DNA of 64,000 bases from Chiloscyllium plagiosum (taxonomy: Eukaryota), in contig NC_057749.1 of the NCBI RefSeq assembly GCF_004010195.1, forward strand, positions 11,451,540-11,515,539, given 5' to 3'. The notes below the pieces were generated by a model that did no database searches, was not told the DNA's origin, and saw nothing but the letters and a program-made list of their open reading frames with translations. Below, piece by piece: positions 1,831-60,098 of the stretch. The translations under genes were made by a program, and so were the position numbers. Position 1 is the first letter of the stretch. Each line of letters begins with the position of its first letter.

Positions 1831-1928
1831 TCTTCCTGAAGAAGGGCTAATGCCCGAAACGTCGATTCTCCTGTTCCCTAGATGCTGCCTGACCTGCTGC
1901 GCTTCTCCAGCAACACATTTCCATCTCT
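1831..1928 (+). mobile_element. PLE pLTR fragment, family A, with intact hammerhead core and truncated 3' end
   Basis: Near-identical to 4665-4790 and 5565-5692, which flank a PLE RT remnant. Confidence 0.8.
1836..1863 (+). ncRNA. Minimal type-I hammerhead ribozyme core (family A)
   Basis: CTGAAGA-A-GGGC-TAAT-GCCC-GAAAC-GTC: conserved core, 4-bp stem II, palindromic ACGT stem III, GUC cleavage triplet. Stem I is weak (about 2 bp). Confidence 0.65.
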
Positions 1929-2219
1929 TTGGCAAGACAATGGCTCTAATTCGGAGCCCCGGAACCTACTCCTTGCTACTTGGGATGGCTCAAATGTACT
2001 TATCAATGGGCAATAGGATGTTTATCCAGTACCTTCTGTGACATGATTTGTTCACGAGGTCACAGCATTTTTGGGAGTCCCACCCTTCACAAGGATACCA
2101 ATAAGTGAAATGTGAAGGTGGCTAACTTTGCTATAGATACCTGACTTTTTGAAGCTAACTGTTTGGAAGGGCAGTGGAAAAGGCAAGCAGAAATAAAAGG
2201 CTCATCAGTCCTCTAAGAA

Positions 2220-2338
2220 GAGAAAGTGAGGACTGCAGATGCTGGAGATCAGAGATGGAAATGTGTTGCTGGAAAAGCGCAGCAGGTCAGGCAGCATCTA
2301 GGGAACAGGAGAATCGACGTTTCGGGCATTAGCCCTTC
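2220..2338 (-). mobile_element. PLE pLTR fragment, family A, complete 3' end but truncated within the hammerhead
   Basis: Reverse complement of the family A pLTR; stops before CTGA. Confidence 0.8.
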
Positions 2339-4275
2339 GAAGAGAGGCCAGCAAGTCTGGAACCTTATCAATCTGTTTTCCTAGATACCAAATATGGCAA
2401 AAATTGCCATACCAGAGTGGGACTGCTGAACCATTCAGGCAATGCTTTGCACAGAGTTGTGACCACTATGATTGTAAAAAAAAAAACCATTGTCTTATAA
2501 GACAGTGACAGCAAATTGTGTTTTTTTTTAAAGCAAAAGTAGTTGAAAGAAAGAGTAAACTCTTCAGTTACATTATGGTATATTGAGTTAACAGAATTGA
2601 TAATTTTGATTAAAAACTGTATGGTGTTTTTCTGTTGCAATAAGTACAAAAGAAGTATTATAAAATCCTTGTGTTGATAAAGTACTGTGAATTCTGCAGA
2701 AGATTTATAGAGTGATCGACTTTGATAGTATAATGTTTAGTATTTTAAATCTCTAGTTAATATTGAATGGAAGCTGTTGCTTATATGTGGTTACTGTATT
2801 TACAGAGAATAAAATTATAGTGATTAATATATTTAGAAATATTTTGATAAGTCATTTCATGTGGCTAATAGGAAAGATGGAATTTGGGTTGCTACGGGAA
2901 CATGAGTGACATTATTAAAGGAGATAGAGCAGGTTATTAATGAGAGAATAAGATTAGTATAATTGAAACTGAAAACATGAAACTTGAGGTTCCATTGTTG
3001 AACTTGTTTGTCAAATGGGACATTGTCTTTGATGGTCTCTAACTATGCCTGTGCAGGAGAATCTTACTGTTGTTTATGGAACTACTGTTAGAATGCAGCG
3101 GGGGGATGGGAATCTGAATTGTAGAGCCGGAGTACAGGAGGTTCAGCGTAGTGAGGTCAGGGATAGGTTTACAAGGTTGTGAGGGGGCACCGGCAATCAG
3201 GATGTTGGTTTGAAATGTGCATACTTCAATACCAGGAGTATCAGAATAAGGTGGGTGAACTTGCAGCAAGGATTAGTACCTGTGATTTCGATGTTGTGGC
3301 CACTTCAGAGACATGGCTAGAGAAGGGACAGGAATGGTTGTTGCAGATTCTGGCATTTAGATGTTTCAGCAAGCACAGAGAAGATGGTAAAAAAGGCAAG
3401 GGAATGGCATTATTAATCAAGGGTAGTATTACAGCAGCTGAGATAACATTTGAGGACTAATCCACTGAGGTAGTTTGGGCTGAGGTTACAAACAGGCACG
3501 GAGAGTCACCCTGTTGGGAGTTTTCTATAGGCCTCTGAATTGTTCCAGGGATGTAGAGGAAAAGATAACAAAGATGATTCTTGATAGAAGTGAGATAACA
3601 AGGTAGTTGTTATGGGGGACTTTAACTTCGGCAATATTGACTGGGAATACAATAGTTCAAGTAGTTTAGGTGGGGCAGGAGGGTTTCTGACACAGTATGT
3701 AGACAGGCAAACAAGGGGTGATGCCATATTGGATTGAGTACTGAGGAATGAACTCGGCCAGGTGGTAGATTTGGCGATAGGTGAGCATCTTGGCAATAGT
3801 GGCCATATTCCGGTTATGTTTACCATAGCAATGGGCAGGGATAGGTATATACCACAGGGAAAGAGGTATAATTGGGGAAAGGCAATTATGATGCAATGAG
3901 ACAAGATTTAGGATGGGGAAGGAAACTGCAGGGGATGGTGCAATTGAAATGTGCAACTTATTCAAAGAACAGCTGCTGCATATCCTTGATAAGTATATAG
4001 CTGTCAGGCAGGGAGGTAGTTGTTGAGAAAGGAGGCCATAGTTTGCTAAAGAAGTTGAAGCGCTTCTCCAGAGGCAGAGGAAGGCTTATGTGAGGATGAG
4101 GGGTGAAGGCTCAGTTAGGGGCCTTGCGAGTTATAAGTTAGCCAGAAAAGATCTAAAGAGAGGGCTAAGAAGAGCCAGGAGGGGACATGAGAAGTTGTTG
4201 GCGGATAGCATTAAGGAAAACCCAAGGCCTTCGAAAGGTATATTAGGAATAAAAGAATGGCCCTAATCTTAGTCA

Positions 4276-4480
4276 AGGAGAAAGTGAGGACTGCAGATGC
4301 TGGAGATCAGAGTCGAGGGTGTGTTGTTGGGAAAGCGCAGCAGGCTAGGTAGCAGCCTGAGGAGCAGGAGAATCGATGTTTTGGGCATAAGCCATTCCTG
4401 ATGAAGGGCTTATGCCTGAAATGTCGATTCTGCTGCTCCTCGGATGCTACCTGACCTGTGCTTTCCCAGCAACACACCAT
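4276..4480. mobile_element. Palindromic family A pLTR insertion with a hammerhead core at 4398-4425 (+)
   Basis: Left arm 4276-4393 is the reverse complement of the pLTR and right arm 4394-4480 is forward. Core CTGATGAAGGGCTTATGCCTGAAATGTC shows CpG decay. Confidence 0.8.
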
Positions 4481-4665
4481 CTAACCTTATTCCAGTCAAT
4501 CAAAGATAGTAGTGGAAAGTTGTGTGTGGAATCTGAGGACATAGGGGAAGTGCTTAATGAATACTTTTAGTCAGTATTCATGTTGGAAAAGGACCATGTT
4601 AGTGAGAATATGGAGATACAGGCTACAAGATTAGATGGGATCGAGGTTGACAAAGAGGTGGTTTC

Positions 4666-4693
4666 CTGAAGAAGGGCTTATGCCCGAAACGTC
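4666..4693 (+). ncRNA. Minimal type-I hammerhead ribozyme core (5' pLTR)
   Basis: CTGAAGAAGGGCTTATGCCCGAAACGTC. Confidence 0.68.
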
Positions 4694-5016
4694 GATTCTC
4701 CTGTTCCTTGGATGCTGCCTGACCTGTGCTTTTCCAGCAACACATTTTCAGCTCTGATCTCCAGCATCTGCAGTCCTCACTTTCTCCTCGAATATTTTAA
4801 CCTACTGCGAATCCTCATACAAGGATACCTTCCTTGAAGAAGCTCTCTTCCTCCCTCTACAAGGATTTCAGTGAGTCCCTCTCTCACTGCACTCCCCAGG
4901 TCATCTCCTCTGCACAGAAGCTCTTCAGCCACGTTCTCAAACAGACTCGCTACCACAGCCACATCTTCCTCAGCACCTGCCTACGGAACTGACTGATCCC
5001 GCACGGACTCCGGACT

Positions 5017-5545
5017 ATGTTCCGACCAACAAAATTTGGACCCAACCGGGACAACCAGTACCTACAACAAATCCGAAGCCTCCAGCAACAGACCTCCCTC
5101 TGGATCCTTCACTCCATGCTTGCAGCCATGCGGCGCTACCTACATTCCCTGCAATTAGACCTACCCCAGCTCAGGGCAACACACTCACATGCCTGTAAAG
5201 GACCTCAGCTGTTCTTCATCCACAGAAGAATCCATACACTAAATAAACAGTTCTTCCTAGCCATATCGGAAATTAAAGACAGTAAGTACCAAAAACTTTC
5301 ATGTACTTACCCCCACACTCTGGGTTCCTCAACTGTTCCAGAATCATCCATCGGCCTCCGAAATCGTTCCAGCTCTGCCTGCCTTTTCGTAGGATATGTG
5401 GAACAGTCCATCTTCCGCAGATACACTGGCACCACCCCCCACCTTTTCCTCCGCTACATCGATGACTCTATCGGCGCTGCCTCGTGCTCCCACGAGGAGG
5501 TTGAACAGTTCATCCACTTTACCAACACCTTCCACCCCGACATCA
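5017..5545 (+). pseudogene. PLE ORF remnant: N-terminal region fused in frame to an RT core fragment
   Basis: ORF 5017..5661 contains ACLFVGYVEQSIF...FLRYIDDSIG...FIHFTNTFHPDIK (PLE RT, YIDD motif). Most of the RT and the GIY-YIG domain are missing. Confidence 0.85.
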
Positions 5546-5566
5546 AAAAAAAGACTTTCCTCATTC

Positions 5567-5594
5567 CTGAAGAAGGGCTTATGCCCGAAACGTC
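5567..5594 (+). ncRNA. Minimal type-I hammerhead ribozyme core (3' pLTR)
   Basis: CTGAAGAAGGGCTTATGCCCGAAACGTC, identical to 4666-4693. Confidence 0.68.
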
Positions 5595-7229
5595 GATTCT
5601 CCTGTTCCTTGGATGCTGCCTGACCTGCTGCGCTTTTCCAGCAACACATTTTCAGCTCTGATCTCCAGCATCTGCAGTCCTCACTTTCTCTCCAAAGAGG
5701 AGGTTTTAGCAATTTTGGAAGATCTGAAAATAGATAAGATCCTGGGGCTGGATGGGATTTATCGTTTGATCCAGCAAGCCTTACTTTGATTGTGGATAAG
5801 GTGTTGGAAAGGGTTATAAGAGCGGATTTATCATCTTCTGGAAAAGAATAATTTGATTAGGGATAGTCAGTGTGGTTTTGTGAAGGGTAGATTGTACTTC
5901 ACTAACGTTATTGAGTTTTTTGAGAAGGTGACAAAACAGATGAATAAAGGTAAGGTGGTTGATGTGGTATATATGGACTTCAATAAGGCATTTAAGGTTT
6001 CACAAGGTAGGCTATTGCACAAAAGGAGGAGTTTCAGGATTGAAGGTTATTTAGTGGTTTGGATCAGAAATTGGCTCGCTGAAAGAATACAGGGTTGGTT
6101 GATGGGAAATGTTTATCCTGGAACTCAGTTACCGGTGGTGTGCCACAAAGATCTGTTTTGGGACCACTGCTGTTTTTATAAATGATCTGCATGTGAGTGT
6201 AGAAGGATGGTTAGTAAATTTGTAGATGACACCAAGGTAGGCAGAGTTGTGCGCAGTACTGAAGGATGTTGTGGGTTACAGAGGAACATCGATAAGATGC
6301 AGAGCTGCGTGGAGAAGTGGCAAATTGAGTTTAATGTGGAAAAGTGTGAGGTAGTTTGCTTCGCAAGAAATAACAGGAATGCGGAGTAGTGGGCTAATGG
6401 TAAAATTCTTTGACAGTGTAGGTGAACAGAGAGATCTATGTCCAGGTGCATAAATCTCTGAAAGTTGCGACCCAGATTGATAGGGTTGTTAAGAATGCCT
6501 ATGGTATGTTGGAGATTATTGGTAGGGGGGGGGGGGTTGAGTTTCAGAGCCACGAGGTCATAAGGCTGCACCTGGAGTATTGCATATAATTCTGGTCACC
6601 ACATTATAGGAAGGATGTGGAAGCTTTGGAAAGGGTTCAGATGAGATTTAGTAGAATGTTGCCTGGTATGGAAGGAAGGTCTTACGAGGAAAGGCTTAGG
6701 GAACTGAGACTATTTTTGTTGGAGAGAAGAAGGTTGAGAGATAACTTAATCAAGTCATATAATCGGGGGTTAAATAGGGTTGACAGGTGAGAGCCTTTTT
6801 CCTCAGATGCTGAAGGCTAACATGAGAAGTAGCTTTAAATTGAGGCATGATAGATTTAGGACAGATATTAGGGGTAGTGTCTTTACTCAGTAGTAGGGGG
6901 CATGGAACAGTCATAAACTTGCCAACGTTAAGGGCGTTTAAACGGGCATCGGACATACATAGGGATAATAATGGAACGTTGTAGTTTAGATGGGCATCAG
7001 ATTAATTTCACAGGTCAGCGCAATATCGAGGGCTGAAGGGCCTGTACTGGACTGTTATGTTCTATATCTCCTCACCTAAAGTCAAGGTTTGCGTTCCTAT
7101 AAATTGATTTAAATTTAAGCATTGATTTCCAGCATCTGCAAAAAGAAAAAGAGCTCATGTTTGAGGTGTATGACGTTTTGAGTTTTCATGAAAGTCATCA
7201 ACATGAAATGTTGACTCTTTCTTTCCACA

Positions 7230-7433
7230 ATTTGGAGATGCCGGTGTTGGACTCGGGTGTACAAGGTTAAAAATCACACAATACCAGGTTATAGTCCATC
7301 AGGTTTATTTGGAAGCATTAGCTTTTGGAGCACTGCTCCTTCATTGCACTACCTGACGAAGGAGCATCGCTCTGAAAACTAGTACTTCCAAATAAACTTG
7401 TTGGGCTATAACCTGGTGTTGTGTGATTTTTAA
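7230..7433. mobile_element. Palindromic short element, family B, with a hammerhead-like core at ~7353-7382
   Basis: Arms ~7267-7344 and ~7352-7433 are inverted repeats. Core CTGACGA-A-GGAGC-ATC-GCTCT-GAAA. TSD CTTTC(C/T)ACA at 7221-7229 and 7434-7442. Second copy at 43598-43817. Confidence 0.75.
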
Positions 7434-8844
7434 CTTTCTACAGTTGTTATTGGATCTGCTGAATTTATCCAGCTTTCTTTCATTCATATTTCAGGTTTCC
7501 AGCACCTGCAATTTTTGCTTTTGTTTTATTGTAGGCATGGAGGGATCATGGTGTGCAAGGAGCCACTCAGTCTTGAGCTTACAACCTTTCCTGCATAAAC
7601 TACTTTTATGAGCATTTGAGTTACTGATGTTACATATTTTTATTATTTCAATTAAGATGAGATTTGTTATTCTGAGTTCTCTTGCTCTTGGATGCCCAAG
7701 AATAACACATTACATTAAAAACACTGTTTAAATACAATGAAACTCCTTGCGATGGTTTACAGGCACATTGTGAAACAAAGGCAACAAATGACAGTTTTAA
7801 GTCAGCTCACTGAAAACTGAATCAGAGGTGAGGCTTAAGGATTTTCAACAGGAACTAGTGAGCTAGAGAGGCAAGAGTCATAGAGCTTTTTATTCCAGAG
7901 GTTGGGCATGATTGGAACTGAAGGTGTGGCTGCTTGTGGAGCAATTACATTTGAAAGGTGTTGAAGGAGCGGTGGCAAGTTCCTGTAGTACATTTTTTTT
8001 TCTTATTCATTCGAGGGATGTGGATGTCATTGGCTGGCCAGCATTTTTTATTGCTGTCTCTAGTTTGTTTTGAGAAATTGGTTATGAGCTGCCTTCTTAA
8101 ACTGCTGCAGTCTGTGTGCTGTGGGTTGACCCACAGTGCCCTTGAGGGGTTTTCAGGAATTTGATGCAAAACAGTGAAGGAACAATAATATATTTTGAAA
8201 TCAAGATGGTAAGTGGCTTGGAAGGGAACTTGTAGATGGTAGTGTTCCCATGTATGTGCTGGAAGCCCTTGTTCTTCTTGATGGAAGTGGTCATGGGTTT
8301 GGAAGGTGCTGTCTGAGGATCTTTGGTGAATTTTTGCAGTGTATCTTGTAGATAGTAGTACATATTTCTGCAACTGAACATCGGTGGAGGAGGGAATGGA
8401 TGCTGTGGATGTGGTGTCAATCAAGAGGGCTGCTTTGTTGTGGATGGTGACCAGCTTCCTGAGTGGTGTTGGAGCTACACTTATCCAGGGGAGTATTCCA
8501 TCACATTTGTGACATGTGCCTTGTAGATGATGGTCAAACTTTGGGGAGTCAGGCGGTGAGTTGTATTGCCACAGTATTCCTAGCCCCTGACCTGCTGTTG
8601 TGGCCTCTGTTTATATGGCAAGTCCAGTTCAGTTTCTGTTCGGTGGTAACCCTGTGATTTGGCTGTTTATGCTGCAAAGCCATGTAATTGTTCCATGGGC
8701 AATACCTTGAATAATCAAAGTTCAATTGCCAACTAGTTAATATTCTTTTCTCTTACAATATAACTTATTATTTACTTTGAGATCCAGTGTTCTTGCCATA
8801 TTGTCCTGATGAGTGCAAGACAAAAATCCTTGAGTGCAGTAATA

Positions 8845-8975
8845 GTAAATAAAGCAAAACTGGAAATTGCTGGAGAGCATGCTGATGAAGGGTCACTGGA
8901 CCCGAAACACTGACTCTTCTTTCTCCACTACCAGACCTGCTGAGTGCTCCAGCAGTTTCTGTATTTATTTCAGCT
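8845..8975 (+). mobile_element. Older pLTR-like short element, family D, with a decayed hammerhead at 8882-8912
   Basis: CTGATGA-A-GGGTC-ACTG-GACCC-GAAAC, then CCAGACCTGCTGAGT...CCAGCA. Related degenerate copies at ~7120-7520, ~13010-13215, ~27935-28140, ~37630-37770 and ~58555-58620. Confidence 0.6.
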
Positions 8976-9051: not shown

Positions 9052-9353
9052 AATGGATGCAAGTTTGCTCGCTGAGCTGGAAGGTTCATTTTCTGATGTT
9101 TTATCACCATACTAGATAACATCAGTGAGCCTGTAATGAAACACTGGTGACATCACCACAGGAAATGACATCACCAATACAAGGAAGCCTAAACACAAAT
9201 AGAAAGCGGGTCATTAACACCAGTGCTTCATCGGAGGCTCACTGGTGTCACCTAAAATGATGATGAAATGTCTGAAAATGAACCTTCCAGGTTAGCGAAT
9301 CCAACTTACATCTAGAACCTCAACCTGAGCTACACACCTTCTCAAAACTCACT
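9052..9353. mobile_element. Palindromic family C PLE pLTR insertion (decayed hammerheads)
   Basis: 9052-9132 is the reverse complement of 9235-9312. Homologous to the pLTRs of the GIY-YIG PLE at 53670-54640. Confidence 0.75.
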
Positions 9354-10030: not shown

Positions 10031-10039
10031 AGATGGGTT

Positions 10040-10250
10040 TGGGTTTCTTTGGGTTAGTAATGTCATATAATCATATGACATACAAACATATAAATAGAAA
10101 GCAGGAATTTTCAGCATTGCTTCGCCTGAGGCCCACTGAAGATGTTACCTAGTAGGGTAGTGAAATGTCTGGAAATGAACCTTGCAGCTCAGTGAGCAAA
10201 CCTACATCCAAAACCTCAAACCTGAGCTACACATCTTCTCAAAACTTGCT
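10040..10250 (+). mobile_element. Family C PLE pLTR with hammerhead core at 10136-10169
   Basis: CTGAAGA-T-GTTACCTAGTAGGGTAGT-GAAATGTC; homologous to 54545-54640. Confidence 0.75.
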
Positions 10251-16329: not shown

Positions 16330-19300
16330 ATGTAGAACATAGAACAATACAGCACAGGACAGGCCCTTCAGCCCACGATGTTGTGCCGAACATTTGTCCT
16401 AGCTTAAGCACCTATCCATGTACCGATCCAATTGCCGCTTAAAGGTCACCAATGATTCTGCCTATGCCACTCCCACAGGCAGCGCATTCCATGCCCCCAC
16501 CACTCTCTGGGTAAAGAACCTACCCCTGACATCTCTTTNNNNNNNNNNNNNNNNAAAAGTTTCTGACTGTCTATTCTATCTATTCCTCTGATCATCTTAT
16601 AAACCTCTATCAAGCCACCCCTCATCCTTCGCCTTTCCAATGAGAAAAGGCCTAGCACACTCAACCTATCCTCGTACGACCTATTCTCCATTCCAGGCAA
16701 CATCTCTGTACCCTCTCCAAAGCTTCCACATTTTTCCTAAAATGAGGCGACCAGAACTACACACAGTACTCCAAATGTGGCCTTACCAAGGTCCTATACA
16801 GCTGCAACATCACCTCACGACTCTTGAATTCAATCCCTCTGCTAATGAACACCAATATACCATAGGCCTTCTTACAAGCTCTATCNNNNNNNNNNNNNNN
16901 NNNNNNNNNNNNNNNNNNNNNNNNNNNNNNNNNNNNNNNNNNNNNNNNNNNNNNNNNNNNNNNNNNNNNNNNNNNNNNNNNNNNNNNNNNNNNNNNNNNN
17001 NNNNNNNNNNNNNNNNNNNNNNNNNNNNNNNNNNNNNNNNNNNNNNNNNNNNNNNNNNNNNNNNNNNNNNNNNNNNNNNNNNNNNNNNNNNNNNNNNNNN
17101 NNNNNNNNNNNNNNNNNNNNNNNNNNNNNNNNNNNNNNNNNNNNNNNNNNNNNNNNNNNNNNNNNNNNNNNNNNNNNATCTACTGCCACTCTCTGACTTC
17201 GGCCGGTTAGCTAGTTCTCTATCCAACTGGCCAAACCTCCCACTATCCCATGCCTCCTGACTTTCCGCATAAACCTACCATGGGGAACCTTATCAAATGC
17301 CTTACTAATATCCATGTACACTATATCCACTGCTCTACCCTCATCCACTTGCTTGGTCACCTCCTCAAAGAATTCAATAAGACTTGTAAGGCAAGACCTA
17401 CCCCTCTCAAATCTGTGCTGGCTGTCCCTAATCAAGCAGTGTCTTTCCAGATACTCATAAATCCTATCCCTCAGTACCCTTTCCATTACTTTGCCTACCA
17501 CCGAAGTAAGACTAACTGGCCTGTAATTCCCGGGGTTATCCCTATTCCCTTTTTTGAACAGGGGAACAACATTCGCCACTCTCCAGTCCCCTGGCACCAC
17601 CCCCATTGATAGTGAAGACGAAAAGATCATTGCCAACGGTTCTGCAATTTTCTCTCGCTTCCCACATAATCCTAGGATATATCCTGTCAGGCTCGGGGGA
17701 CTTGTCTATCCTCAAGTTTTTCAAAATGCCCAACACATCTTCCTTCCTAACAAGTATCTCCTCTAGCTTACCAGTCCTTTTCATACTCTCCTCTTCAGCA
17801 ATACAAGCCCTCTCATTTATAAATACTGAAGAAAAGGACTCATTCAAGACCTCTCCTTTCTCTTCCGACTCAATACACAGTCTCGCACTACTGTTCTTGA
17901 TCGGACCTACCCTCGTTCTCGTCATTCTCATGTTTCTCACATACGCATAAAAGGCCTTGGGGTTATCCTTGATCCTACCTGCAAAAGATTTTTCATGCCC
18001 TCTGTTAGCTCTCCTAATCCCTTTCTTCAGCTCCCTCCTGGCTATCCTGTATCCCTCCAACGCTCTGTCTGAACCTTGTTTCCTCAACCTTATGTAAGCC
18101 TCCTTCGTCCTCCTTACAAGACATTCAACCTCCCTCGTCAACCAAGGTTCCCTCACACGACCATCTCTTTCCTGCCTGACGTGTCCTTAATATATATGTA
18201 CCTGTCGTATCTGTTCCTTGAAAAAGTTCCACATTTCCACGACATCCTTCCCTGACAGCCTGTGCTCCCAATTTATGCTCCTCAGATCCTGTCTTGCAGC
18301 ATCGTATTTACCCTGCCCCCAATTGTAAAACCTGCCCTGTTGCACGCACCTATCTCTTTCCATAACCAAGGTGAAAGTCACAGAATTGTGGTCACCATCA
18401 CCAAAATGCTCACCCACTAACAAGCCCATCACTCGTCCCGGTTCATTACCAAGTACCAAATCCAATATGGGCTACCCTCTGGTCGGACAATCTACATACT
18501 GAGTTAGAAAAGCTTCCTGGACACACTGCACAAACACCGCCCCGTCCAATCTACTTGATCTAAAGAGCTTCCAATCAATATTTGGGAAGTTGAAATCGCC
18601 CATGACTACTACCCTGTGGCTTCTGCACCCCCTCCTTTTTTACCATCCCCCCCAATCTTACTGCAACATCTGTAACCAGGAACCTCCCACAACCATTCCT
18701 ATCCCTCTTCTATCCACGTTTCCGTGATGGCCACAACATCATGGTCCCAAATGCCGATCCACGCCTTAAGTTCACCCACCTTATTTCTGATACTCCTTGC
18801 GTTGAAGTATACACACTTGAGCCCATCTCTGTGTCCGCAAGTATTCCCTGTCAGTGCTACCTTCTCCACAGCCTCCCTACATTCTTGGACATATTGAAAA
18901 ACAGCTAACCTACTTGCTGGACTACAAGTCCGGACCCCATCCCCCTGCCAAATTAGTTTAAACACCCCCGAAGAGTGCTAGCAAACCTACCTCCCAGGAT
19001 ATTGGTGCCCTTCTGGTTCAGGTGCAACCCGTCTTGCTTATACATGTCCCACCTTCCCCAGATTGCAGTCCAATTGTCCAAATATCTGAAGCCCTTCATC
19101 CTGCACCATCCTTGCAGCCACGTGTTCAACTGCGCACTCTCCCTATTCCTTGCCTCACTGTCACGTGGCACCGGCAACAACCCAGAGATGACAACTCTGT
19201 CCGTCCTAGCTTTTAGCTTCCAGCCTAATTCCCTGAGCTCCTGAATGACCTCCCCATCCCTCTTCCTACGTATGTTGTTGGTGCCAATGTGCACCATGAC

Positions 19301-29501: not shown

Positions 29502-29686
29502 GAGGACAATACTGGGAGAAAGTGAGGACTGCAGGTGCTGGAGAGTCAGAGTCAAAAGGTGTGGTGCTGGTAAAGCACAGCAAGTCAGGTAGCATTTCTG
29601 AAGAAGGGCTTATGCCCGAAACGTCGATTCTCCTGTTCCTTGGATGCTGCCTGACCTGCGCTTTTCCAGCAACATATTTTCAGCTC
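29502..29686. mobile_element. Palindromic family A pLTR insertion
   Basis: Exact 14-bp TSD TATCTTCTCCCACC (29488-29501, 29687-29700); inverted arms. Confidence 0.85.
29598..29625 (+). ncRNA. Minimal type-I hammerhead ribozyme core
   Basis: CTGAAGAAGGGCTTATGCCCGAAACGTC. Confidence 0.65.
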
Positions 29687-30024
29687 TATCTTCTCCCACC
29701 AGTTACCAAAAGCCGTGGCTTTTAATTAATAACTAAGTTACAGTCTGTTCTTCTATAACGTAACAACTGCATTCTTGTGTGACCTTGCATTATAGAAAAT
29801 CGCGCAATAAAAGTAACAAGGCCTTTGAGGAAAACTGAGTTAGAGGTGGACTACCAAAAATATCAGTAAAAATTGAAACAAAAGTTGTAGTTAGCTTAAC
29901 CTAAACAATAGCAGTCTTAAGTAAATATTAAAATCAGATATTTTGGTGAAATAATACAATAAATTTAAAACTTTACCCTGAAAAACTGGAAGGTAACTTG
30001 AAGGAGTTTGAGTTTGCTGAGTTA

Positions 30025-44599: not shown

Positions 44600-45340
44600 G
44601 ACAGCTGTTTGGGTTATCAGGAGGACCCAGGGTCTTTCTCCTTTCTAGGAGAGAGAGAGAATTTTTGTCAAACGATTTTATCATGACATAGTCCCCAGGC
44701 TGGAAAGGAAACATTGGCTCAACTCAAGGCATGGGAATGACCTCTTTCACTTGATCATGGTTACGGGTGATCATTTTACAGAGTGCTTTGACAGAATCTA
44801 GTAGGGCCACCTTATCAGGAGCAATGGCATATCCACAGGGAGCTTTGGAGGACTAGCCGCTGGACGCATCGGTCTGCCCATCAGGACCTCAAAGGGAGTA
44901 AGTTCCATGGTTCTGTTGACTTGGTTCTTTATGGTGTACAGGGACAAAGACAAGGCGTCTGGCCACAACAGGCCCATGTTCTGTGTAATTTTAGTCAGGG
45001 TAGTTTTAAGTGTATCATTCATCCGTTCCACCATACCGGAAGACTGGGGCTGATAGGGAATATGATATTTCCACATGATGCCCAGTGCCTTACTAAATTA
45101 TCTGTGACGGCTGCTGTAAAGTGGGTTCTTCTATCACTGTTAATACTACCCAGAAATCTAGGGATGACATCTTTCATAAGGCATTTGACCAATGTTCGCG
45201 CACCATCCTTCCATGTAGCAAAGGCTTTTGCCCATTTAGAGAACATGCTGATAATTAGCAAAATATATCCTATTCAGCGGATGTGAGCAAAATCAATCTG
45301 CAGCTGAGAAAAGGCTCCTTGTCGGATTGGCACATGGTTA
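44600..45340 (-). pseudogene. pol: Retroviral integrase remnant
   Basis: FSQLQIDFAHI; MFSKWAKAF..VIPRFLGSINSDRRTHFT; HIPYQPQSSGMVERMNDTLK..TPFEVLMGRP; FQPGDYVMIK. Confidence 0.9.
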
Positions 45341-45904
45341 TATTTAGCTTCAAGCTTACCATGGGCGGCCAGGACATGCAAAAGGGATTTGGAGCGAATG
45401 ATACATCCATCAGGGTGCATTAGCCTCTTAGATTCCTTAGCGTCCCTGTGGACCCAGCTGTATTTCTCGGCTAGCGGAGCAGCCTGCTGTGCCGACCGTA
45501 CTCCTTTGTTAGATCGGTAGCTGCCGGAGTTGCTTATATTCTGGGAACACATGGTGGGAGTCAATGCGGCAGTCAGCACAAGTATTTCTGTGGGTGATGG
45601 GATCATCCGCAGCGATATGGGCGGCGGACTTCATAACGGCTATATTAGCGGGAGAAAGAAAAGTCTGTAACAGATTGTTGAGAGCTGAACATGTTGCAGG
45701 GGTCTTCCAGAAAAGTTAATGAACCCTTTGCTTTGCTGAGCTCATGCACCAGAACCCAGACAAAGTGGGGCACTCGCCCTCCCTTTACTGCATAATTTGT
45801 TGGAAAGAACCATTTCCTGACCGTTAGAACTATTTAGTATCAGTTTGGGACAGTGAAGAAAATGACTATAGGGGATCACACCAGGCAGTGACCCCCCCCC
45901 CCCC

Positions 45905-46036
45905 CCCCCCGATGAAGGGCTTTTGCCCGAAACGTTGATTGTCCTGCTCCTCGGATGCTACCTGACCTCCTGTGCTTTGCCAGCACCACTCTAAACTTGA
46001 CTCTGATTTGCAGCATCGGCAGTACCCATTTTTCCT
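45905..46036 (+). mobile_element. Family A pLTR variant, 5'-truncated in the hammerhead
   Basis: GATGAAGGGCTTTTGCCCGAAACGTT preceded by poly-C. Confidence 0.72.
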
Positions 46037-46049
46037 TGAATCAATCCAG

Positions 46050-51530: not shown

Positions 51531-54109
51531 TATAAGCCCCCTCCTTTATGTTCTTTGCCCCATGTTATATCTCAGCTTGACTTAAATAGATTCCACATCA
51601 TTGAAACATGTCTGACACAAAACCTTAATGCTTATCTTTTAAACACTACTTAGAGTCATAGAGATGTACAGCACAGAAACAGACCCTTCGGTTCAACTTG
51701 TTCATGCCGGTCAGATATCCCAACCCAATCTAGTCCTATCTGCCAGCACCTGGCCCATATCCTTCCAAGCCCTCCTTATGCATGTAACCATCCAGATGCT
51801 TTTTAAATATTGCAATTGTACCAGCCTCCACCACTTCCTCTAGCAGCTCATTCCACACAAGTATCACCCTCTGCATGAAAAGGTTTCCTCTTCGGTCTCT
51901 TTTATGTCTTTCCCCTCTCACCTTAAACATATGCCCTCTAGTTCTGGACTCCCCCACCCCAGGGAAAAGACTTTGTCTATTTACCCTATCCATGCTCCTC
52001 ATAGATTTCATAAACCTCTATAAAGTAACCCCTAAGCCTCTGACCCTCCAGGGAAAACAGCCCTAGCCTATTCAACCTCTCCCTATAGCTCCAATCTTCC
52101 ACCCCTTGCAACATCCTTGTAAATCTTTTCTGAACCCTTTCAAATTTCATAACATCTTTCCATTAGGAAGGAAACCAGAATTGCACGCAATATTCCAACA
52201 GTGGCCTAACCAATGCACTGTACAGCTGCAACATGTCCTCCCAACTCCTGTACTCAATACTCTGACCAATAAAAGAAAGCATACCAAATGCTGCCTTCAC
52301 TATCCTATTTACCTGCGACTCCACTTTCAAGGAACTATGAACCTGCATTCCAAGGTCTCTTTGTTCAGCAACACTCCCCAGGACCTTACCATTAAGTGTA
52401 TAAGTCCTGCTAAGACTTGCTTTTCCAAAATGCAGCACCTCACATTTATCTAAATTAAACTCCATCTGCCACTTCTCAGCCCATTGGCCCATCTGATCAG
52501 GATCCCATGGTAATCTGAGACCTAACCTTGCTAACCAGTCTCCCATTGGGAAACTTGTTGAATGCCTTACTGAAGTCCATATAGATCACTTCTACTGCTC
52601 TGCCCTCATCAATCCTCTTTGTTACTAATTCAAAACACCCGATCAAGTTTGTGAGACATGATTTCCCACGCGCAAAGCCATGTTGACTACCCCGAATCAG
52701 TCCTTACCTTTTCAAATACATGTACATCCTGTCCCTCAGGATTCCCTCCAGCAACTTGTTCACCACCGATGTCAGGCTCACTGGTCTATAGTTCCCTGGC
52801 TTGTCCTTACCACACTTCTTAAACAGTGGCACCACGTTAGGCAATCTCCAGTCTTCTGGCACCTCACCTGTTACTATCAATGATACAAATATCTCCGTAA
52901 GAGGCCCAGCAATCATTTCCCTAGCTTCCCACAGAGTTCGAGGGTACACCGGATCAGGTCCTGGGGATTTATCCACTTTTATGCATTTCAAGACATCCAG
53001 CCTGTCCTCCTCTGTAATATGGACATTTTTCAAGATGTCACCATGTATATCCCTACATTCTGTATCTTCCATGTCCTTTTCCACAGTAAATACTCGCAAA
53101 ATACTTGTTTAGTATCTCCCCATCTCCTGTGGCTCCACACAAAGACTGCCTCGCTGATCTTTGAGGGGCCCTATTCTCTCCCTAGTTACCCTTTTGTCCT
53201 TAATGTATTTGTAAAAACCCTTTGGATTCTCCTTAACTGTATTTGCCAAAGTTATCTCATGTCCACTTTTTGCCCTCCTGATTTTTCTCAAGTATACTCC
53301 TACTGCCTTTAGACTCTTCTAAGGATTCACTCAATGTATCCTATCTATACCAGCCATATGATTCCTTTTTCTTAACCAAACCCTCAATTTCTTTAGTCAT
53401 CCAGCATTCCCTATACCTGCCAGCCTTTCTTTTCACCCTAACAGGAATATACTTTCCCTGGACTCTCGCTACCTCATTTCTGAAGGTTTCCCATTTTCTA
53501 GCTGTCCCTTTACCTGCAAACATCTGCCCCCAATCAGCTTTTGAAAGTTCTTGCCTAATACTGTCAAAATTGCTCTTTCTCCAATTTAGAACTTCAACTG
53601 TTAGATTTGGTCTATCCTTTTCCATCACTATTTTAGAACTAATAGAATTAGTTTTAAAATAGAATTATAGCAAGTTTTAAGAAGATTTGTAGCTTAAGTT
53701 CTGGATGTAGGTTTACTTGCTGAGCTGTTCTGGATGTAGGTTTGCTTGCTGAGCTGGAAGGTTCATTTCCAGACGTTTCGTCACTCTACCATGTAACATC
53801 TTAAGTGGACCTCCAGGCGAAACACTGCTGATAATTCCTGCTTTCTATTTGTGTATTTGGGTTTCTTTGGGTTGGTGATGTCATCTCCTGTGTTGATGTC
53901 ATTTCCTGCTCTTTTTCTCAGGGGTGGTAAATGGGGTCTAACTTGATATGTTTGTTGATAGAGTTCCGGTTGGAATGCCATTCTTCTTGGAATTCTCATG
54001 CGTGTTTCTGTTTGGCTTGTCCTAGGATGGATGTTTTGTCCCAGTCAGTGGTGTCCGTTAGTCAGGATACTAATGAGAAAGGGTCATGCCGTTTGTGGCT
54101 AGTTGATGT

Positions 54110-54511
54110 TCATGTATCCTGGTGACTAGTTTGTCCAATGTAGTGTTTGTTACAGTTCTTGCACGGTGTTTTGTAAATGACGTTAGTTTTGCTTGTTGTC
54201 TGTATAGGGTCTTCCAAGTTAATTTGCTGCTGTTTCAGTGTGTTGGTGGGTTTGTGGGCTACCATGATGCCAAGGGGTCTGAGTAGTCTGACAGTCATTT
54301 CAGAGATGTCTTTGCAGGGGAGATTGGCTAGGATTTCTGGATGTGTTTTGTCTGCTTGTTTGGGTTTGTTGCTGAGAAATTGGTGGACTGTGTTCATTGA
54401 GTACCCATTTTTAAAAAAAATACATGGTATAGATGATTTTCCTCTGATCTGCGTAGTTCCTCTGTGCTGCAGTGTGTTGGCTCGTTGAAACATCCACAAA
54501 CGAAGCTGCAT
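54110..54511 (-). pseudogene. PLE RT thumb/linker and GIY-YIG endonuclease remnant
   Basis: FFKNGYS...HKPTNTLKQ...NVIYKTPCKNCNKHYIGQT. Confidence 0.9.
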
Positions 54512-54566
54512 CAGAACAGTATTTCAGTAGAAAGGAGGGATTATTAGTGCTTCACCCGGAGGCCCT

Positions 54567-54600
54567 CTGAAGATGTTACCTAGTAGGGTGATGAAACGTC
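54567..54600 (+). ncRNA. Type-I hammerhead ribozyme core (family C)
   Basis: CTGAAGA-T-GTTACC-TAGTAG-GGTGAT-GAAAC-GTC. Confidence 0.62.
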
Positions 54601-56689
54601 TGGAAATGAACCTTCCAGATCAGTGAGCCAACCTACATCCGAATAGAATTATGCTCGCTGGTCTCAGTGTTCCCTCACTGACACCTCAGTCACCTGCCCT
54701 GCCTTATATCCAAGAGTAGGTCAAGTTTTGTACCTTCTCTAGTAGGTACATTACATACTGAATCAGAAAATCTTTCTTAACAAATTCCTCTCCATCTAAA
54801 CCCTTAACACTATGGCAGTTCCAGTCTTTGTTGGGAAAGTTAAAATCCCCTACCACAACCATCCTATTATTCTTAGAGATAACTGAGATGTCCTTACAAA
54901 TTTGTTTCTCAATTTCCCTCTGACTGTTAGGGGCTCTATAATACAATCCCAATAAAGTGATCATCCCTTTCTTATTTCTCAGTTCCACCCAAACAACTTC
55001 CCTGGAAATATTTCTAGGAATATCCTCCCTCAGCACAGCAGTAATGCTATCCCTTATCAAAAATACCACTCCCCCCTCCTCTCTTGCCTCCCTTTCTGTC
55101 CTTCCTGTAGCATTTGTATCCTGGAACATTTAAGCTGTCCATCCCTGAGCCATGTTTCTGTAATTGCTATGATATCCCAGTCCTATGTTCGTAACCATGC
55201 CCTGAGTTTGTCTGCCTTCCCTGTTTGTTCTCTGCTTTTGTTCCTGCCTGCCCTGACTGTTAGAGTCGCCTTTGTTCTCAACCGTACCAGTTTCCGATAG
55301 ATCTCTTTCCTCACTATCTCTCTGGGTTCTCCTGTCCGTCCTCTGCACCCACATTACTAGTTTAAATCCTCCTGAGCAGCTCTAGTAAATCTCCCTGCCA
55401 GTATATTAATCCCAATTTAGTTGCAATCAGTCCTCCTTGTACAGGTCACCTCTACACCAAAAGAGCTTCCAATGATCCAAAAATGTGAATCCTTCTCCCA
55501 TCCACCAACTCCTTAGCCATGCATTCATCTGTTCTATCCTCCTATTCCTGTCCTCACTAGTTCGTAGCACTGGGAGTAATCCAGATTTTGCTACTATCGA
55601 GGACTTTCTTTTTAAATCCTTGCTTAATTCTCTGTAATCTCCCTTCAGAATCTTAACCTTTTCTCTTCCTATGTCGTTGGTTCCAATGTGTACAATGACT
55701 TCCTGCTGGCCCATCTCCCCCTTGAGAACATTCTACACCCTCTGAGACATCTTTGACCCTGGCATCAGGGAAGCAACACACCATTCTGATATTTTTGTTG
55801 CTGGCCACAGCAACGTCTGTCTGTACCTCGGACTAGAGAGTCCCCTAACATGATCGATCTCTTGGAACCTGGCATGCCCTGGCAGAGCCAATCTCAATAC
55901 CAGAAATTTGGCTGTTCCTGCTACATTCCCCTGAGAATCCATCACCCCCTACGTATTCCAAAATAGCATACTTGATTGAAATGGGGATAGCCACAAAAGA
56001 CTCCCGCATTAACTGCCTACCTCTCTTACCTTTCCTGAAGTTAACCCATCCATATGACTGTATCTGCGATGTTTCCCCCTTTCTACAACTGCTATCCATC
56101 GCATCCCCTTGCTCTTGTAAATTCCTCATTGCCTCTAACTGTCTCTCCAACCGATCCATTTGATCTGATAGGATTTGCAACCAACAGCCTTTATTGCCGA
56201 TGTAATCCTCAGGAACCCATAAACTCTCCCTAAGCGCTCGTATCTGACCAGAAGAGCATATCGCTCTACTAAAGGCCATTTTTGCTTCTTTCAATCTACA
56301 ATCCCACATAATAGCACTGTCTTATTCCTCTACAAAACACTGCTCCAGATTAAATTAATATTTCTGGTTTATATTTTAAGTTTAATCAAGAGACATAACT
56401 CAATAAATCATATAATCAAGAAAGAAGACACTATACTGAGTACTGCAAGCTTACTGTAAGGCCACACTTAAAATGTCCGCTTATCTGTTTCTGTGCTGTG
56501 ACCTCTCCCAAACAGGTTCCTCCAAGATCAGTTGTGAATTTCACTGTTTGTTAATTTTCCGAGATGCACTCCAATGTCCAGCGATACATAAACTTTGTCC
56601 CCCTGTCTAGAAGTTTGCAAATGGAGTTGGTTCTTTGCTCTTGTTCTCTCTTTAGGGCTTTCATGCCTAATGAATATTTAAACAAGAGT

Positions 56690-57480
56690 CCCTTCATTGT
56701 GATCCCTGGGGAAGGGGGTCGTGGAGAGAAAGAGGGCTGAGAGATAAGTAGGAGGGTGGGGATGAGGTAGCTGGGAAGGCGATAGGTAGATGCAGATGGC
56801 AGGTGGTAATGATAGGTCGGAGGGGAGTGTGGAGTGGATAGATGGAAAGGAAGATGGGCATGTAGGACAGTTCAAGAGCGCAGAGCCGTGTTGGAGGGTT
56901 GGATCTGGGATGAGTTGGGCGTAGGGGAGATGAGAAAACGTGTGAAGTGAATGTTGATGCTGTGTGGTTGGAGGGTCCCAAGGTGGAAGATGAGGCGTTC
57001 TTCCTCCAGGCATCAGGTGGCTTGGATTTGGTGGGTGGAGGTGGCCCTGGAATTTAACTCCCCCTCCCACTCTGCCAAGGACAGGCAATCCTGGGCTGCC
57101 TCCATGGCCAAGTCTAAGCCCCCTGATGCCTGGAGGAAGAGTGCCTCATCATCTGCTTTGGGGCCCTCCAACTTCAGTTTCCTTATCCCAGATCCAACCC
57201 TGTCCATCTTCTTTCCCACCTATTCGCTCCATCCTCCCTTCCAACCTATCACCATCACCACCCACCTGTATCTACATATTGCCTTCCCAGCTACCTAACC
57301 GCCTCCCTCCCCTTGTATTTATCTCTCAGCCCCCTTCTCTCCACCCCCACATATCTGATGAAGGGCTTATGCCCAAAACGTCAATCCTCCTGCTGCTTGG
57401 ATGCTGTCTGACCTGCTGTGCTTCTTCCACACCACGCTTATTGACTCTGGTCTGCAGCGTCTGCAGTCCTCACTTTCTCT
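56690..57480. mobile_element. Family A PLE 3' end with a long inverted duplication (56690-57040 -, 57050-57480 +)
   Basis: Both arms carry the PLE C-terminus (FNSPSHSAKD; LEEERLIFHLGTLQPHSINIHF) and a pyrimidine-rich 3' UTR. Hammerhead at 57355-57382 has GAAA mutated to AAAA. Confidence 0.8.
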
Positions 57481-57492
57481 CAGAAAGCCAGT

Positions 57493-57799
57493 TTAGAATA
57501 CATTACAGTGTGGAAACAGGCCCTTCGGCCCAACATGTCCACACCGACCCGCCGAAGCGCAACCCACCCATACCCCTACATTTACCCCTTAGCTAACACT
57601 ACGGGCAATTTAGCATGGCCAATTCACCTGACCTGCACATCTTTGGATTGTGGGAGGAAACTGGAGCACCCGGAGGAAACCCACGCAGACACGGGGAGAA
57701 TGTGCAAACTCCACACAGGCAGTCGCCTGAGGCAGGAATTGAACCCGGGTCTCAGGCGCTGTGAGGCAGCAGTGCTAACACTGTGCCACCGTGCCGCCC
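57493..57799 (-). mobile_element. HE1-like SINE, full length and CpG-rich (young)
   Basis: Starts GGGCGGCACGGTGGCACAGTG; B box GGTTCAATTCC; CCAGTT flanks both ends. Confidence 0.9.
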
Positions 57800-58961
57800 A
57801 GTTAGCTTTCCAATACAAAATGATCATCTTTGCAACCCAGGTTGTACTGAGCCCAGTTGTGATCTAAATGAGCACAGACTTTGGATTAAACCTGTAGAGG
57901 TGACACGGGGCATGTTCTCTCATGCTCCCTCTTCTCCCCCACCACTTGTAAATATGCAATGTAGAGCAAGAAAGTCCTAATTCATTTCCAGGTGCTAAAT
58001 AAGCTTTCATAATGAGCGTTATGTATAAGTTAAACCATGCTTTAAGATGTCCAGCACAGGAGAATGCTGTCTAAAAGAAACAATCCTTCATTTTTTTGTA
58101 GCCCAAGACTATTTGCATATGTTTTCATTTTGATTCTTTTAAAAATTATTTCATGGAATGTAAGATTTCCTTAAAGTGAAGGAGTAGAGCTTTTTGTGTG
58201 CATTGAATTGATTTGATCTGACATGGTTGCAGTTTCAGTGAGAATCACAGTAGTATCGATAAATGACTTTTTTCCTTTAAGGTGGACTACTTAGAAGATT
58301 GATGTAAAAAGTAGCTGGGGCATTTACTTTTTCCATTCACTTGAACAAAGCATCCAACAAGGTTTTGCTAAATAGATGCAATGCACTATTTTCAGATCCA
58401 CTTTTAACACTTGATAAGATTGAAAATACTCTGAAGTATTGTGCCCTGAGTGCACTATTTGTTTGGCTCCGTGAGTATTAGTGCAGTTACAAAGTGCTGC
58501 ACTTGAAAATTTGCGTTCACATTGTTCATTTTAATTGTACATTTTTTTGGATCCCTTTCTCTCTCCACAGATACAACCGGTCCTGCTGAGTTTTCCTGGC
58601 ACACTTTATTATTTGTGCTTGTCTTTGGCATGAAGTGAGTTGCTGATGATAGACTTTGCAATTTTCCCTTACTATTGGAAGTCTGTATTTTTGAGGCCTA
58701 GCATGACGGTTGATGTGGAACTACACTGTGCAATACAAATTTAATGGTGTTTTCAATTTAGCACAGTTACTTGGTTATGCCAAGAACTGTGTTTTAATTG
58801 TTCTTGTTCAGGCTGTTTTATTAGCAAAGTGGTCAATCTTCCCTCACTACTTCTCCTGATTTCTCTTCCTTCCACTCACCATACCAATCAAAGCTTACTT
58901 GCTATGAACCAGGGAGTTGGATGAAGGATTGCATTGAGTGAGTCAGAAGAGGGAAATGGGA

Positions 58962-60098
58962 TATAGAACAAAGAGCATTACAGCACAGGAACAGGCTCTT
59001 TGGGCCTCCAAGCCTGCGCTGATCCATGTCCTCTGTCTAAATCTGCTGCCTATTTTCTAAGGATCTGTATCCCTTTGTTCCTGCCCATTCATGTATCTGT
59101 CAAAATAATGCTACGTGACGCTATTGTTCCCGCCCCTACCATCTCTGCTGGCAATGCGTTCCAGGCACTTGCTATGAAGAATTTTCCAGGTGTATCTCCC
59201 TTAAACTTTTCCCCCCTCACTTTGAACTCGTGACCCCTTATAATTGTGCCCTCTACTTTGGGCAAATGTTTCTTGCTATCCACCCAGTCTACGCCCCTCA
59301 TGACTTTGTTGGCCTCAATCATGAGAGGGTGGCTCAGTGGTTAGCACTGCTGCCTCTCAGCACCAGGGACCCGGGTTTGACTCCACCTTCTGGCGACTCT
59401 GTGTGGAATTTGCACCTTCTCCCCATGTCTGCGTGGGTTTCCTCCCACAATCCAAAGATGTGCAGGTTAGGTGAATTAGGTAAAAATCTCTCCACACTTC
59501 CGGCTCTCTGCCTTTGTTCCTGATGAAGGGCTTTTGCCTGAAATGTCGATTTTACTGCTACTTGGATGCTGCCTGAACTGCTGTGCTCTTCCAGCACCAC
59601 TAATCCAGAATCCAGGTTAGGTGAATTGGCCATGCTAAATTGCCCATAGTGTTCAGGGGTGTGTAGGTTAGCTGCATGAGTCAGGGGTAAATTTCGGGGA
59701 ATGGGTCTGGGTGGGATAATCTCTAAAGGATCGGTGTTGACTTGTTGCCCGAAAGGTCGATTTTGAAGCTCCTTGGATGCTGCCTGAACTGCTGTGCTCT
59801 TCCAGCACCACTAATCCAGAATCTGGTTTCCAGCATCTACAGTCATTGTTTTTACCTTGTTGGGCCAAGGGGCCTGTTTCCACACAGTAGGGATTCTAGT
59901 CCTAATTCTAATCAGGTTTCCCCCCAACCACCTCCTTTCCAATGAAAGTAATCCTAATCTACTCAAGCTCTCCTCCTAGCTAGCACCCTCCATACCAGGT
60001 GACATCTGGCGAACTTCCTCTGTACCTTTTGGTAATGTGGCGACCAGAACTGTACGCAGTACTCCAAATGTGGCTGAGCCAAAGTCTTATAGAACTGT
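58962..60098 (-). mobile_element. CR1 3' fragment containing a SINE that carries two pLTR insertions
   Basis: RGHEFKVRGEKFKGD..WNALP; resumes at ~59912. Confidence 0.85.
59323..59910 (+). mobile_element. HE1-like SINE with nested family A-variant pLTRs at 59478-59612 and 59748-59855
   Basis: A box TGGCTCAGTGG; TSDs CAGGTTAGGTGAATT (59463-59477, 59613-59627) and CTTGTTG (59741-59747, 59856-59862); hammerhead core 59520-59547. Confidence 0.85.

Follow-up and report, generated by a model that had tools for sequence, protein, structure and literature searches.

Probable minimal hammerhead motifs at the ends of Penelope-like elements in a 64-kb stretch of the genome of the shark Chiloscyllium plagiosum

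The window analysed here is a 64,000-nucleotide stretch of the Chiloscyllium plagiosum genome (assembly GCF_004010195.1, contig NC_057749.1, positions 11,451,540–11,515,539 of the forward strand), numbered from its first letter. It contains short dispersed repeats that carry a motif resembling the minimal hammerhead ribozyme (min-HHR), which was defined in the pseudo-long terminal repeats (pLTRs) of Penelope-like elements (PLEs) by Cervera & de la Pena (2014; PMC4209133). The motif-bearing repeats are designated families A, B, C and D. Blastn places 16 segments of family A, a repeat of ∼130 bp, in the window (two further high-scoring pairs are flanking sequence from a long interspersed nuclear element, LINE). 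Two of these segments flank a deleted PLE open reading frame (ORF) in a single insertion.

The motif was sought with a simple pattern and two structural descriptors. The simple pattern, CTGANGA-N8-30-GAAA, has 16 matches in the window, compared with 5.84 ± 2.45 in shuffles. The full descriptor consists of CTGANGA, zero or one bulged nucleotide, a stem II of at least 4 bp, a loop of 3–8 nt and GAAA, followed by a loop-less palindrome from A15.1 to U16.1 and then H. The relaxed descriptor omits the helix III condition. The full descriptor finds eight sites (six of family A and two of family C) and none in 300 dinucleotide-preserving shuffles; the relaxed descriptor finds 11 sites, against a shuffle mean of 0.08 and maximum of 2 (n = 300). 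The motif is real and far above chance.

Full-descriptor matches, plus strand: family A at 1836, 4398, 4666, 5567, 29598 and 59520; family C at 10136 and 54567
Relaxed-only matches, plus strand: family B at 7353 and 43737; family D at 8882

The initial annotation of this DNA announced more than 15 loci and listed 14. The 14 coordinates are all right, that at 53772 being the cleavage-site end of a minus-strand motif that spans 53772–53805. At 11 of the 14 loci, the CUGANGA and GAAA boxes stand in type-I order. One nucleotide is bulged between A9 and position 10.1 in all 11 descriptor matches, although a bulge of zero was allowed; the bulged base is A in families A, B and D and U in family C. 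The closing pair 10.1–11.1 of stem II is G-C in family A (G-T where a CpG has decayed), G-C in family D and G-U in family C, and position 11.1 in family B is C in two of four arms and T in the other two. A palindromic helix III with U16.1 and H17 is found in eight of the 11 matches (in A and C, ACGT or ATGT and then C). Contiguous helix I, by descriptor parsing, measures 2 bp in six A copies, 3 bp in the 10136 copy of family C and 0 bp in its 54567 copy. The helix I of family B, read from the sequence, is 3 bp. With the search relaxed to admit U3-A8 core variants, two matches appeared, 29428 (plus) and 28214 (minus); neither has a palindromic helix III, and both are taken as chance.

The helices were compared between families by descriptor parsing; a MAFFT alignment of the 11 motif segments was structurally inconsistent (B shifted, stems out of register). 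Stem II is GGGC/GCCC in family A, GGAGC/GCTCC in B, GTTACC/GGTGAT in C and GGGTC/GACCC in D. Helix III is ACGT or AGCT, and helix I is TC/GA, CAC/GTG or CCA/TGG. The earlier observation that stems differ while pairing is kept therefore extends over stem II, helix III and helix I. Families A, B and C have no BLAST-detectable likeness to one another outside the boxes, so conservation between families is confined to the core while the helices change yet pair. The proposal of at least four families is accurate as to the unrelatedness of A, B and C and inaccurate as to D, which aligns with A, and for B the canonical form exists only in the consensus. Because most motif occurrences are copies of one repeat, A, the independent units are three families plus D.

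The family A insertion lies in ORF2 of a CR1/L2-like LINE and has the following parts.

4664–5693, plus strand: PLE insertion of 1030 bp, pLTR (A), deleted ORF, pLTR (A)
4663–4786, plus strand: family A copy, upstream pLTR with tail, min-HHR at 4666–4693 (blastn, 96.9% to the 5563 copy; descriptor)
4864–5547, plus strand: PLE coding remnants, internally deleted (tblastn with shark proteins)
5563–5692, plus strand: family A copy, downstream pLTR with tail, min-HHR at 5567–5594 (blastn, descriptor)

The 12-bp sequence aaagagg(t/a)ggtt stands on either side of the insertion, at 4652–4663 and 5694–5705. The end of the upstream flank and the start of the downstream flank share KE(V/E)V, and both align to KEDV of another LINE copy in the window. 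As both flanks meet at the same LINE residues, the 12-bp sequence is a target-site duplication. One contig of run X1 and three of run X15 join 4650 to 5693, skipping 1042 nt, and represent the empty site, the same LINE without the insertion. Boundaries of reads from copies genome-wide fall at 5563, 5652 and 5690.

The N-terminal coding remnant (4864–5364) is 85.7% identical to the N-terminus of the Hemiscyllium protein P0004. The reverse transcriptase (RT) remnant (5347–5547), which contains RYIDD, is 71–78% identical to P0005–P0009, RT proteins of Chiloscyllium, Rhincodon and Stegostoma. The nearest protein relatives are from orectolobiform species. P0006, a relative of the insertion ORF, carries the Pfam domains RVT_1 and GIY-YIG. 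Family A is thus the pLTR of a PLE, since its direct copies flank a PLE ORF whose relatives carry both domains. P0006 also contains CNRRKCYTC between RT and endonuclease. A CX2-5CxxC linker is described for Neptune-type PLEs (Craig et al. 2021, PMC8557442), and the linker of P0006 suggests that the family A element is Neptune-like. The PLE remnants surfaced only by tblastn with shark PLE proteins as queries. A Pfam scan of the stop-to-stop ORFs (90 aa or longer), which covered 99 of 109 and omitted the 10 touching the window end or N runs, returned LINE-type domains only and no GIY-YIG, and P0001 alone gave nothing in Pfam even at E up to 10.

Endonuclease remnants adjoin the motif at two further loci, one of family A and one of family C.

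56668–57481: inverted pair of 5'-truncated PLE 3' parts (tblastn with P0006 and P0008; inverted repeats)
53732–54199, minus strand: PLE 3' end, GIY-YIG remnant followed by a family C unit with mutated HHR at 53805–53772

In the first, the minus arm contains a GIY-YIG C-terminus at 57021–56887 and ends within the hammerhead, and the plus arm (57181–57481) ends in an A-type pLTR with a mutated hammerhead at 57355–57382. Positions 57181–57393 on the plus strand align to the C-terminal 78 residues of P0008, and the last residues of the alignment, LMKGL(C/R)PKR, are the hammerhead at 57355 in translation. In P0008 itself, the reading frame continues through an A-type motif ∼110 residues past its GIY-YIG domain. 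With its GIY-YIG C-terminus and the P0008 alignment, the locus agrees with A as a PLE end. In the second, 54199–54128 (minus) aligns to the start of the GIY-YIG domain, residues 349–372 of P0006 (TNVIYKTPCKNCNKHYIGQT), with E 0.004 on a 901-bp subject (tblastn). A frameshifted continuation, SILGQAK..EEWHSN..INKHIKLDPIY in a three-frame reading, leads straight into the C unit. Since the GIY-YIG remnant runs into the C unit, the C motif shares its strand with the endonuclease and follows it at ∼100–130 nt on the 3' side. A CxxC linker cannot be seen at this locus, and family C would fit the Penelope/Poseidon type. The suggested tie of A and C to RT or GIY-YIG remnants is upheld by tblastn and by insertion anatomy.

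The remaining family A segments include solo copies and inverted pairs.

1833–1928, plus strand: A copy without tail, min-HHR at 1836–1863 (blastn, descriptor)
2209–2338, minus strand: A copy with tail and without the CTGA box, sharing a TAAT loop variant with the 1833 copy
4278–4476: inverted A pair, minus arm with tail at 4278–4405, plus arm without tail at 4393–4476, HHR at 4398–4425
29516–29691: inverted A pair, minus arm without its first ∼50 nt, plus-arm HHR at 29598–29625
30032–30187: inverted A pair, plus-arm HHR with a deletion in the CTGANGA box
41310–41533: inverted A pair, plus-arm motif at 41438–41465 with mutated core
45908–46032, plus strand: A copy without the first CT of the core (blastn)
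59517–59600, plus strand: A copy without tail, min-HHR at 59520–59547 (blastn, descriptor)
59746–59844, plus strand: diverged A copy, HHR unrecognisable

Directly upstream of the 1833 copy, a diverged piece at 1775–1832 resembles, by eye, the A 3' part with tail; if so, the two form a partial head-to-tail tandem. Poly-C sequence at 45897–45911 leads into the 45908 copy.

The loci of families B, C and D are as follows.

7226–7437: family B hairpin insertion, inverted arm with ∼40-nt tail and direct arm, motif from 7353
43603–43817: family B hairpin insertion, motif from 43737
10095–10212, plus strand: family C copy, min-HHR at 10136–10169
54528–54643, plus strand: family C copy, min-HHR at 54567–54600
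9055–9312: two decayed C copies, inverted, with core deleted (9055–9123 minus, 9222–9312 plus)
8882–8960, plus strand: family D, single old relative of A, helix III non-palindromic

Each B locus is one hairpin insertion, whose direct arm ends at ..TTTTTAAC. The four B arms give the consensus GAAA-GCT-A, each position being present in at least three of the four, with an AGCU palindrome, a predicted cut after CUA and helix I CAC/GUG. The helix III AGCT followed by A is seen in this consensus only, and family B appears canonical only at that level. The family C unit exceeds 200 bp, its motif is internal, and its copies end at ..ACATCC or ∼40 nt beyond. A 29-bp unit is duplicated in tandem at 53698–53756, in the 3' part of the minus-strand C copy. 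The sequence of family D past the motif aligns with that of A (..GACCTGCTG..CCAGCA..), with GGGTC/GACCC replacing GGGC/GCCC in stem II, and D is a diverged, decayed relative of A rather than an independent family.

All 11 descriptor matches are on the plus strand, as are 11 of the 12 A segments other than inverted arms. Most LINE ORF remnants are on the minus strand (for example 17214–17705, 21486–21872, 35652–36548 and 54707–55129). There may be an orientation bias, for instance within an intron of a host gene.

The inverted arrangements comprise four A pairs, the two B hairpins and the pair at 56.7–57.5 kb. In the A pairs, the inverted arm is truncated at or within the hammerhead and bears a ∼40-nt tail (..GATCTCCAGCATCTGCAGTCCTCACTTTCTCC), and the direct arm has a complete 5' end and no tail. 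Target duplications of 8–14 bp surround the hairpin insertions. The 29516–29691 pair has the 13-bp direct repeat ATCTTCTCCCACC at 29489–29501 and 29688–29700, the 41310–41533 pair the perfect 14-bp repeat GCTGTGATATTGAG at 41293–41306 and 41526–41539, and the 30032–30187 pair a direct repeat of at least 8 bp. The 4278–4476 pair has an imperfect duplication, CTAA(T/C)CTTA..GTCAA, on either side, and the B copy at 43603–43817 has the direct repeat TCAAATGAT at 43589–43597 and 43819–43827. PLE insertions are described as containing partial tandems that give rise to pLTRs, an adjacent inverted 5'-truncated copy and a 30–40-bp tail at one end (Craig et al. 2021, PMC8557442), and the tail has been traced to internal initiation of reverse transcription (Frangieh et al. 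2024, PMC11167929). The window presents this anatomy, with direct pLTRs, an inverted 5'-truncated neighbour and a tail at one end only. At the tail-less junctions 41526–41539 and 29688–29700, the duplication resembles the A sequence there (GCTGTGAT versus GCTCTGAT; ATCTTCTCC versus GATCTCC), which points to a microhomology of the target with the RT start region.

The 5' edge of the short units is sharp. Similarity begins 2–3 nt before CUGA in at least nine of the 16 A segments and in both B insertions, and reads from other copies, RNA and DNA alike, lose similarity at 5563. Because the predicted cut is 28 nt further on, this edge is not a ribozyme product; most likely the template RNA has its 5' end here, and transcription is initiated within the pLTR.

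Family A sequence also appears in predicted proteins. The C-terminus of P0008, ..LMKGLRPKRQLLCS, is translated family A sequence, and so are residues 532–567 of P0010/P0011, where the end of a FUBP3-like isoform from Chiloscyllium plagiosum reads ..EEGLMPATPILLFLGCCLTCCAFPATHFQL and shows 86% identity to the A copy of the window. Its presence in predicted shark proteins reflects either exonisation or an annotation artefact. The long hairpins of the inverted PLE arms match microRNA (miRNA) models with scores far below threshold, namely at 43673–43781 (46.4 bits against MIR845_1, whose gathering score is 81), 41379–41491 and 56962–57181. Such PLE hairpins might be misread as miRNA precursors, or might give rise to small RNAs. 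These findings have value for annotation, as two predicted shark proteins contain the translated motif and inverted pairs mimic miRNA hairpins.

The motif can be superimposed on the published min-HHR consensus, NNN CUGANGAH G..C GAAAN-palindrome-NU H NNN (PMC4209133). Family A reads UC CUGAAGAA GGGC UUAU GCCC GAAA CGU C GA, and A, B and C fit the consensus line by line. The shared features are the boxes, the unpaired base between A9 and 10.1, the G10.1–C11.1 pair (G-U in C), a loop-less ACGU or AGCU helix III followed by H (in eight of the 11 matches, and in B by consensus), and a helix I that is short where it pairs. The siting in the pLTR of RT plus GIY-YIG elements on the same strand (A and C here; B has the insertion anatomy only) is also shared, as are the presence of several unrelated families in a genome, numerous solo copies and pairs on opposite strands. 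The motif also matches the four published features not imposed by the search, which include multiple consensus families per genome with covariation, G10.1–C11.1 and the palindromic 15.2–16.2. The identification in the initial annotation of a minimal, dimer-type hammerhead class of PLE pLTRs is supported by this match. In two respects, family A is unusual. Its stem II has 4 bp, against 6–8 bp ('larger than usual') in the published motifs, and its 2-bp helix I is at the short extreme, which is also reached in Culex, D. virilis and Oikopleura (PMC4209133); moreover, the A and B repeats start 2–3 nt before the core. Published min-HHRs cleave weakly and only as dimers or trimers (PMC4209133); a review (PMC6765202) attributes dimer cleavage to Lunse et al. 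2016.

Related systems differ in other ways. The Poseidon element of Anolis carolinensis (PAc) likewise has a hammerhead in its pLTR and copies ending with and without a tail, but its motif overlaps the ORF start, whereas the A motif opens the pLTR ∼120 nt upstream of the ORF (PMC11167929). The PAc hammerhead is protein-assisted. Animal non-LTR retrozymes are short non-coding type-I hammerhead units related to PLE pLTRs (PMC7229834; 10.64898/2026.07.22.740005), and head-to-tail A-A joints comparable to theirs occur in DNA contigs elsewhere in the genome. Retrozymes form tandem arrays, usually of canonical hammerheads with loop–loop contacts (same sources), whereas the window contains no array. 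The Rfam model Hammerhead_1 has the same catalytic core and type-I strand order; the families here have a helix III without a hairpin and a minimal helix I, and give no match to it.

In coelacanth and Xenopus, thousands of min-HHR copies are reported, mostly solo and some as opposite-strand pairs, and several families per genome with covariation, a bulge and opposite-strand pairs are the norm in fish, coelacanth and frog (PMC4209133). The covarying families of the window reflect this published pattern and not a new class. The possibly 'uncatalogued radiation of non-autonomous ribozyme elements' of the initial annotation is not supported in that form, as the insertion anatomy is that of ordinary PLEs and multiple families per genome are the published norm. 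The annotation of the whale shark genome includes PLEs (PMC8455134), and a preprint (10.64898/2026.07.22.740005) surveys the tandem repeats of 31 vertebrates, one of them a chondrichthyan, for type-I hammerheads, both minimal and canonical. A literature search found no description of shark PLE hammerheads; the preprint supplements, which lay outside the search, may list shark families, and supplement file 2 of PMC4209133, the one of its files that was searched (file 1 was not covered), contains no shark. The three abundant, apparently unnamed shark repeats are new instances of known PLE min-HHR ends.

Families A and C and the consensus of family B are very probably min-HHRs of PLEs that lie in the 3'-terminal region of the element and become pLTRs when partial tandems insert, D being a decayed relative of A. 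The window is littered with mostly dead PLE debris, consisting of hairpin insertions, terminal units on their own and the one pLTR-ORF-pLTR insertion, which has lost part of its interior. In active master elements, as the literature on related PLEs would have it, the motif would act on its own transcript as a weak self-cleaving site. Cleavage would need a second copy, with an ACGU or AGCU helix III formed between molecules, and probably also the protein of the element itself.

A number of results weigh against this explanation. The shared core and palindromic stem III proposed initially fit fully at eight of the 14 listed loci; helix III is broken in three (family D and both plus-strand B copies), and the core is substituted in three others, 41438 (GAAT; GTT at the site), 57355 (G12 to A) and 53772 on the minus strand (CTTAAGA). 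Helix I has merely 0–3 contiguous bp over the families, at the low end of the published range of 2–6 bp, and, on a reading of the neighbouring ORFs by eye, no coding remnant lies beside B or D in the window. Within family A, the expected excess conservation of core over flanks fails, as identity to the column consensus is 85.6% over the 28-nt motif and 88.1% over the next 60 nt (14 of 17 aligned rows, without D and two truncated inverted arms). The window copies decay neutrally, with CpG decay inside the motif; such a core-versus-flank test is ill-suited to dead transposon copies, and the between-family comparison is the informative one. ViennaRNA predicts stem II and not the three-way hammerhead junction. 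In the A-dimer cofold, the 13-nt quasi-palindrome GAAACGUCGAUUC around the predicted cut site of A copies (for example 5592–5604) pairs between copies instead of the 4-bp helix III, and in the family C fold an alternative stem absorbs G8, A9 and ACGUC. Rfam gives no match at gathering and no hammerhead among 15 matches at E up to 10 in the window. This absence is expected, since helix III is loop-less and the models expect a helix III hairpin, and it leaves the hammerhead without independent model support. The RNA run X19 places 1979 reads on the stretch, nearly all on A copies, with no pile-up of read ends at 4693|4694, at 5594|5595 or anywhere else; the library is poly(A) single-cell and unsuited to 5'-OH or cyclic-phosphate ends, so this result is weak evidence. 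The hammerhead of a lizard PLE required protein in order to cleave, and insertion in vitro did not depend on cleavage (PMC11167929).

The alternatives differ in how much of the preferred explanation they replace. It is possible, although doubtful, that the short A and B units (∼85–130 nt, hammerhead-first) are non-autonomous elements, SINE-like (short interspersed nuclear element) or mini-retrozymes, transcribed from the pLTR and copied in trans by a PLE RT; this would add to the explanation above rather than replace it. Their 5' edges cluster 2–3 nt before CUGA where random 5' truncation would scatter, and the loss of similarity at 5563 recurs in reads from many further copies. By summed contig depth, a poor measure, A has several-fold to ∼100-fold the coverage of the ORF parts. 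About 17 contigs of X15 and two of X1 join the A tail (4787–4789) to the A start (5562–5564) head-to-tail, the letters between not being known, and the preprint derives vertebrate retrozymes from PLE pLTRs. Against such elements, Tandem Repeats Finder detects no tandem array in the window, only one 29-bp × 2 repeat, and template switching or pLTR–pLTR recombination could equally give solo units. The X19 reads come from both directions and 95% continue into dissimilar flanks, and many copies thus appear to be transcribed passively within host transcripts. A bolder version, which we consider unlikely, is that the orectolobiform terminal unit of Neptune-like and other PLEs (hammerhead-first, ∼85–130 nt, 2-bp helix I) is a hyper-abundant short retroposon derived from pLTR-initiated or ribozyme-processed short RNAs, sometimes inserted head-to-tail in the manner of a miniature retrozyme. 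If true, it would be the smallest retrozyme-type element known, with a large genome share (16 A segments per 64 kb).

It is rather improbable, too, that the motif is hammerhead-shaped and non-cleaving here, kept as a structural RNA signal (for RT binding, for example) or as a passenger that parasitises PLEs. The short helix I with its predicted competing folds, the absence of X19 read ends at the predicted site, the very poor cleavage of published min-HHRs even as dimers and the dispensability of cleavage for insertion would all suit such a motif, as would the Naiad and Chlamys PLEs, which thrive without hammerheads and whose authors raise the 'parasite' idea (PMC8557442). But three sequence-unrelated families keep all catalytic-core positions, which a binding hairpin would not require, and core mutants of the lizard PLE abolish cleavage while a compensatory double mutant restores it (PMC11167929). 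Chance resemblance, in which CTGANGA, a hairpin and GAAA meet by accident in ordinary repeats, is very improbable and already disfavoured. The lack of an Rfam match and the derivation of most occurrences from a single repeat would be compatible with it, but the full descriptor has no match in the 300 shuffles, and three unrelated families share one architecture, bulge included, and are linked to PLE coding remnants. An origin from foldback DNA transposons (miniature inverted-repeat transposable elements) or miRNA-precursor hairpins, with a 'hammerhead' near the tip by accident, would account for the long inverted arms and the sub-threshold miRNA-model matches. This origin is equally disfavoured and scarcely credible, given that the arms are asymmetric with a tail on one side, the duplications range from 8 to 14 bp, the sequence of the arms also occurs as direct repeats around an RT ORF and 3' of GIY-YIG, and the miRNA matches are all far below gathering scores.

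Other features of the window include LINE remnants at 18956–19396 (minus), 55430–55732 (minus), 3167–3457 (plus) and 54707–55129 (minus) with GDSL-esterase-type ORF1 and AP-endonuclease domains (Pfam), and CR1/L2-like RT at several positions (Pfam). N runs, which are assembly gaps, comprise 409 N in all (16539–16554, 16886–17177, 25260 and 36762–36861), two of them inside LINE-rich stretches. A weak integrase-core rve_3 match at 44801–45097 (minus; E 5e-5, below the Pfam cut-off) is probably a remnant of an LTR element or DNA transposon.

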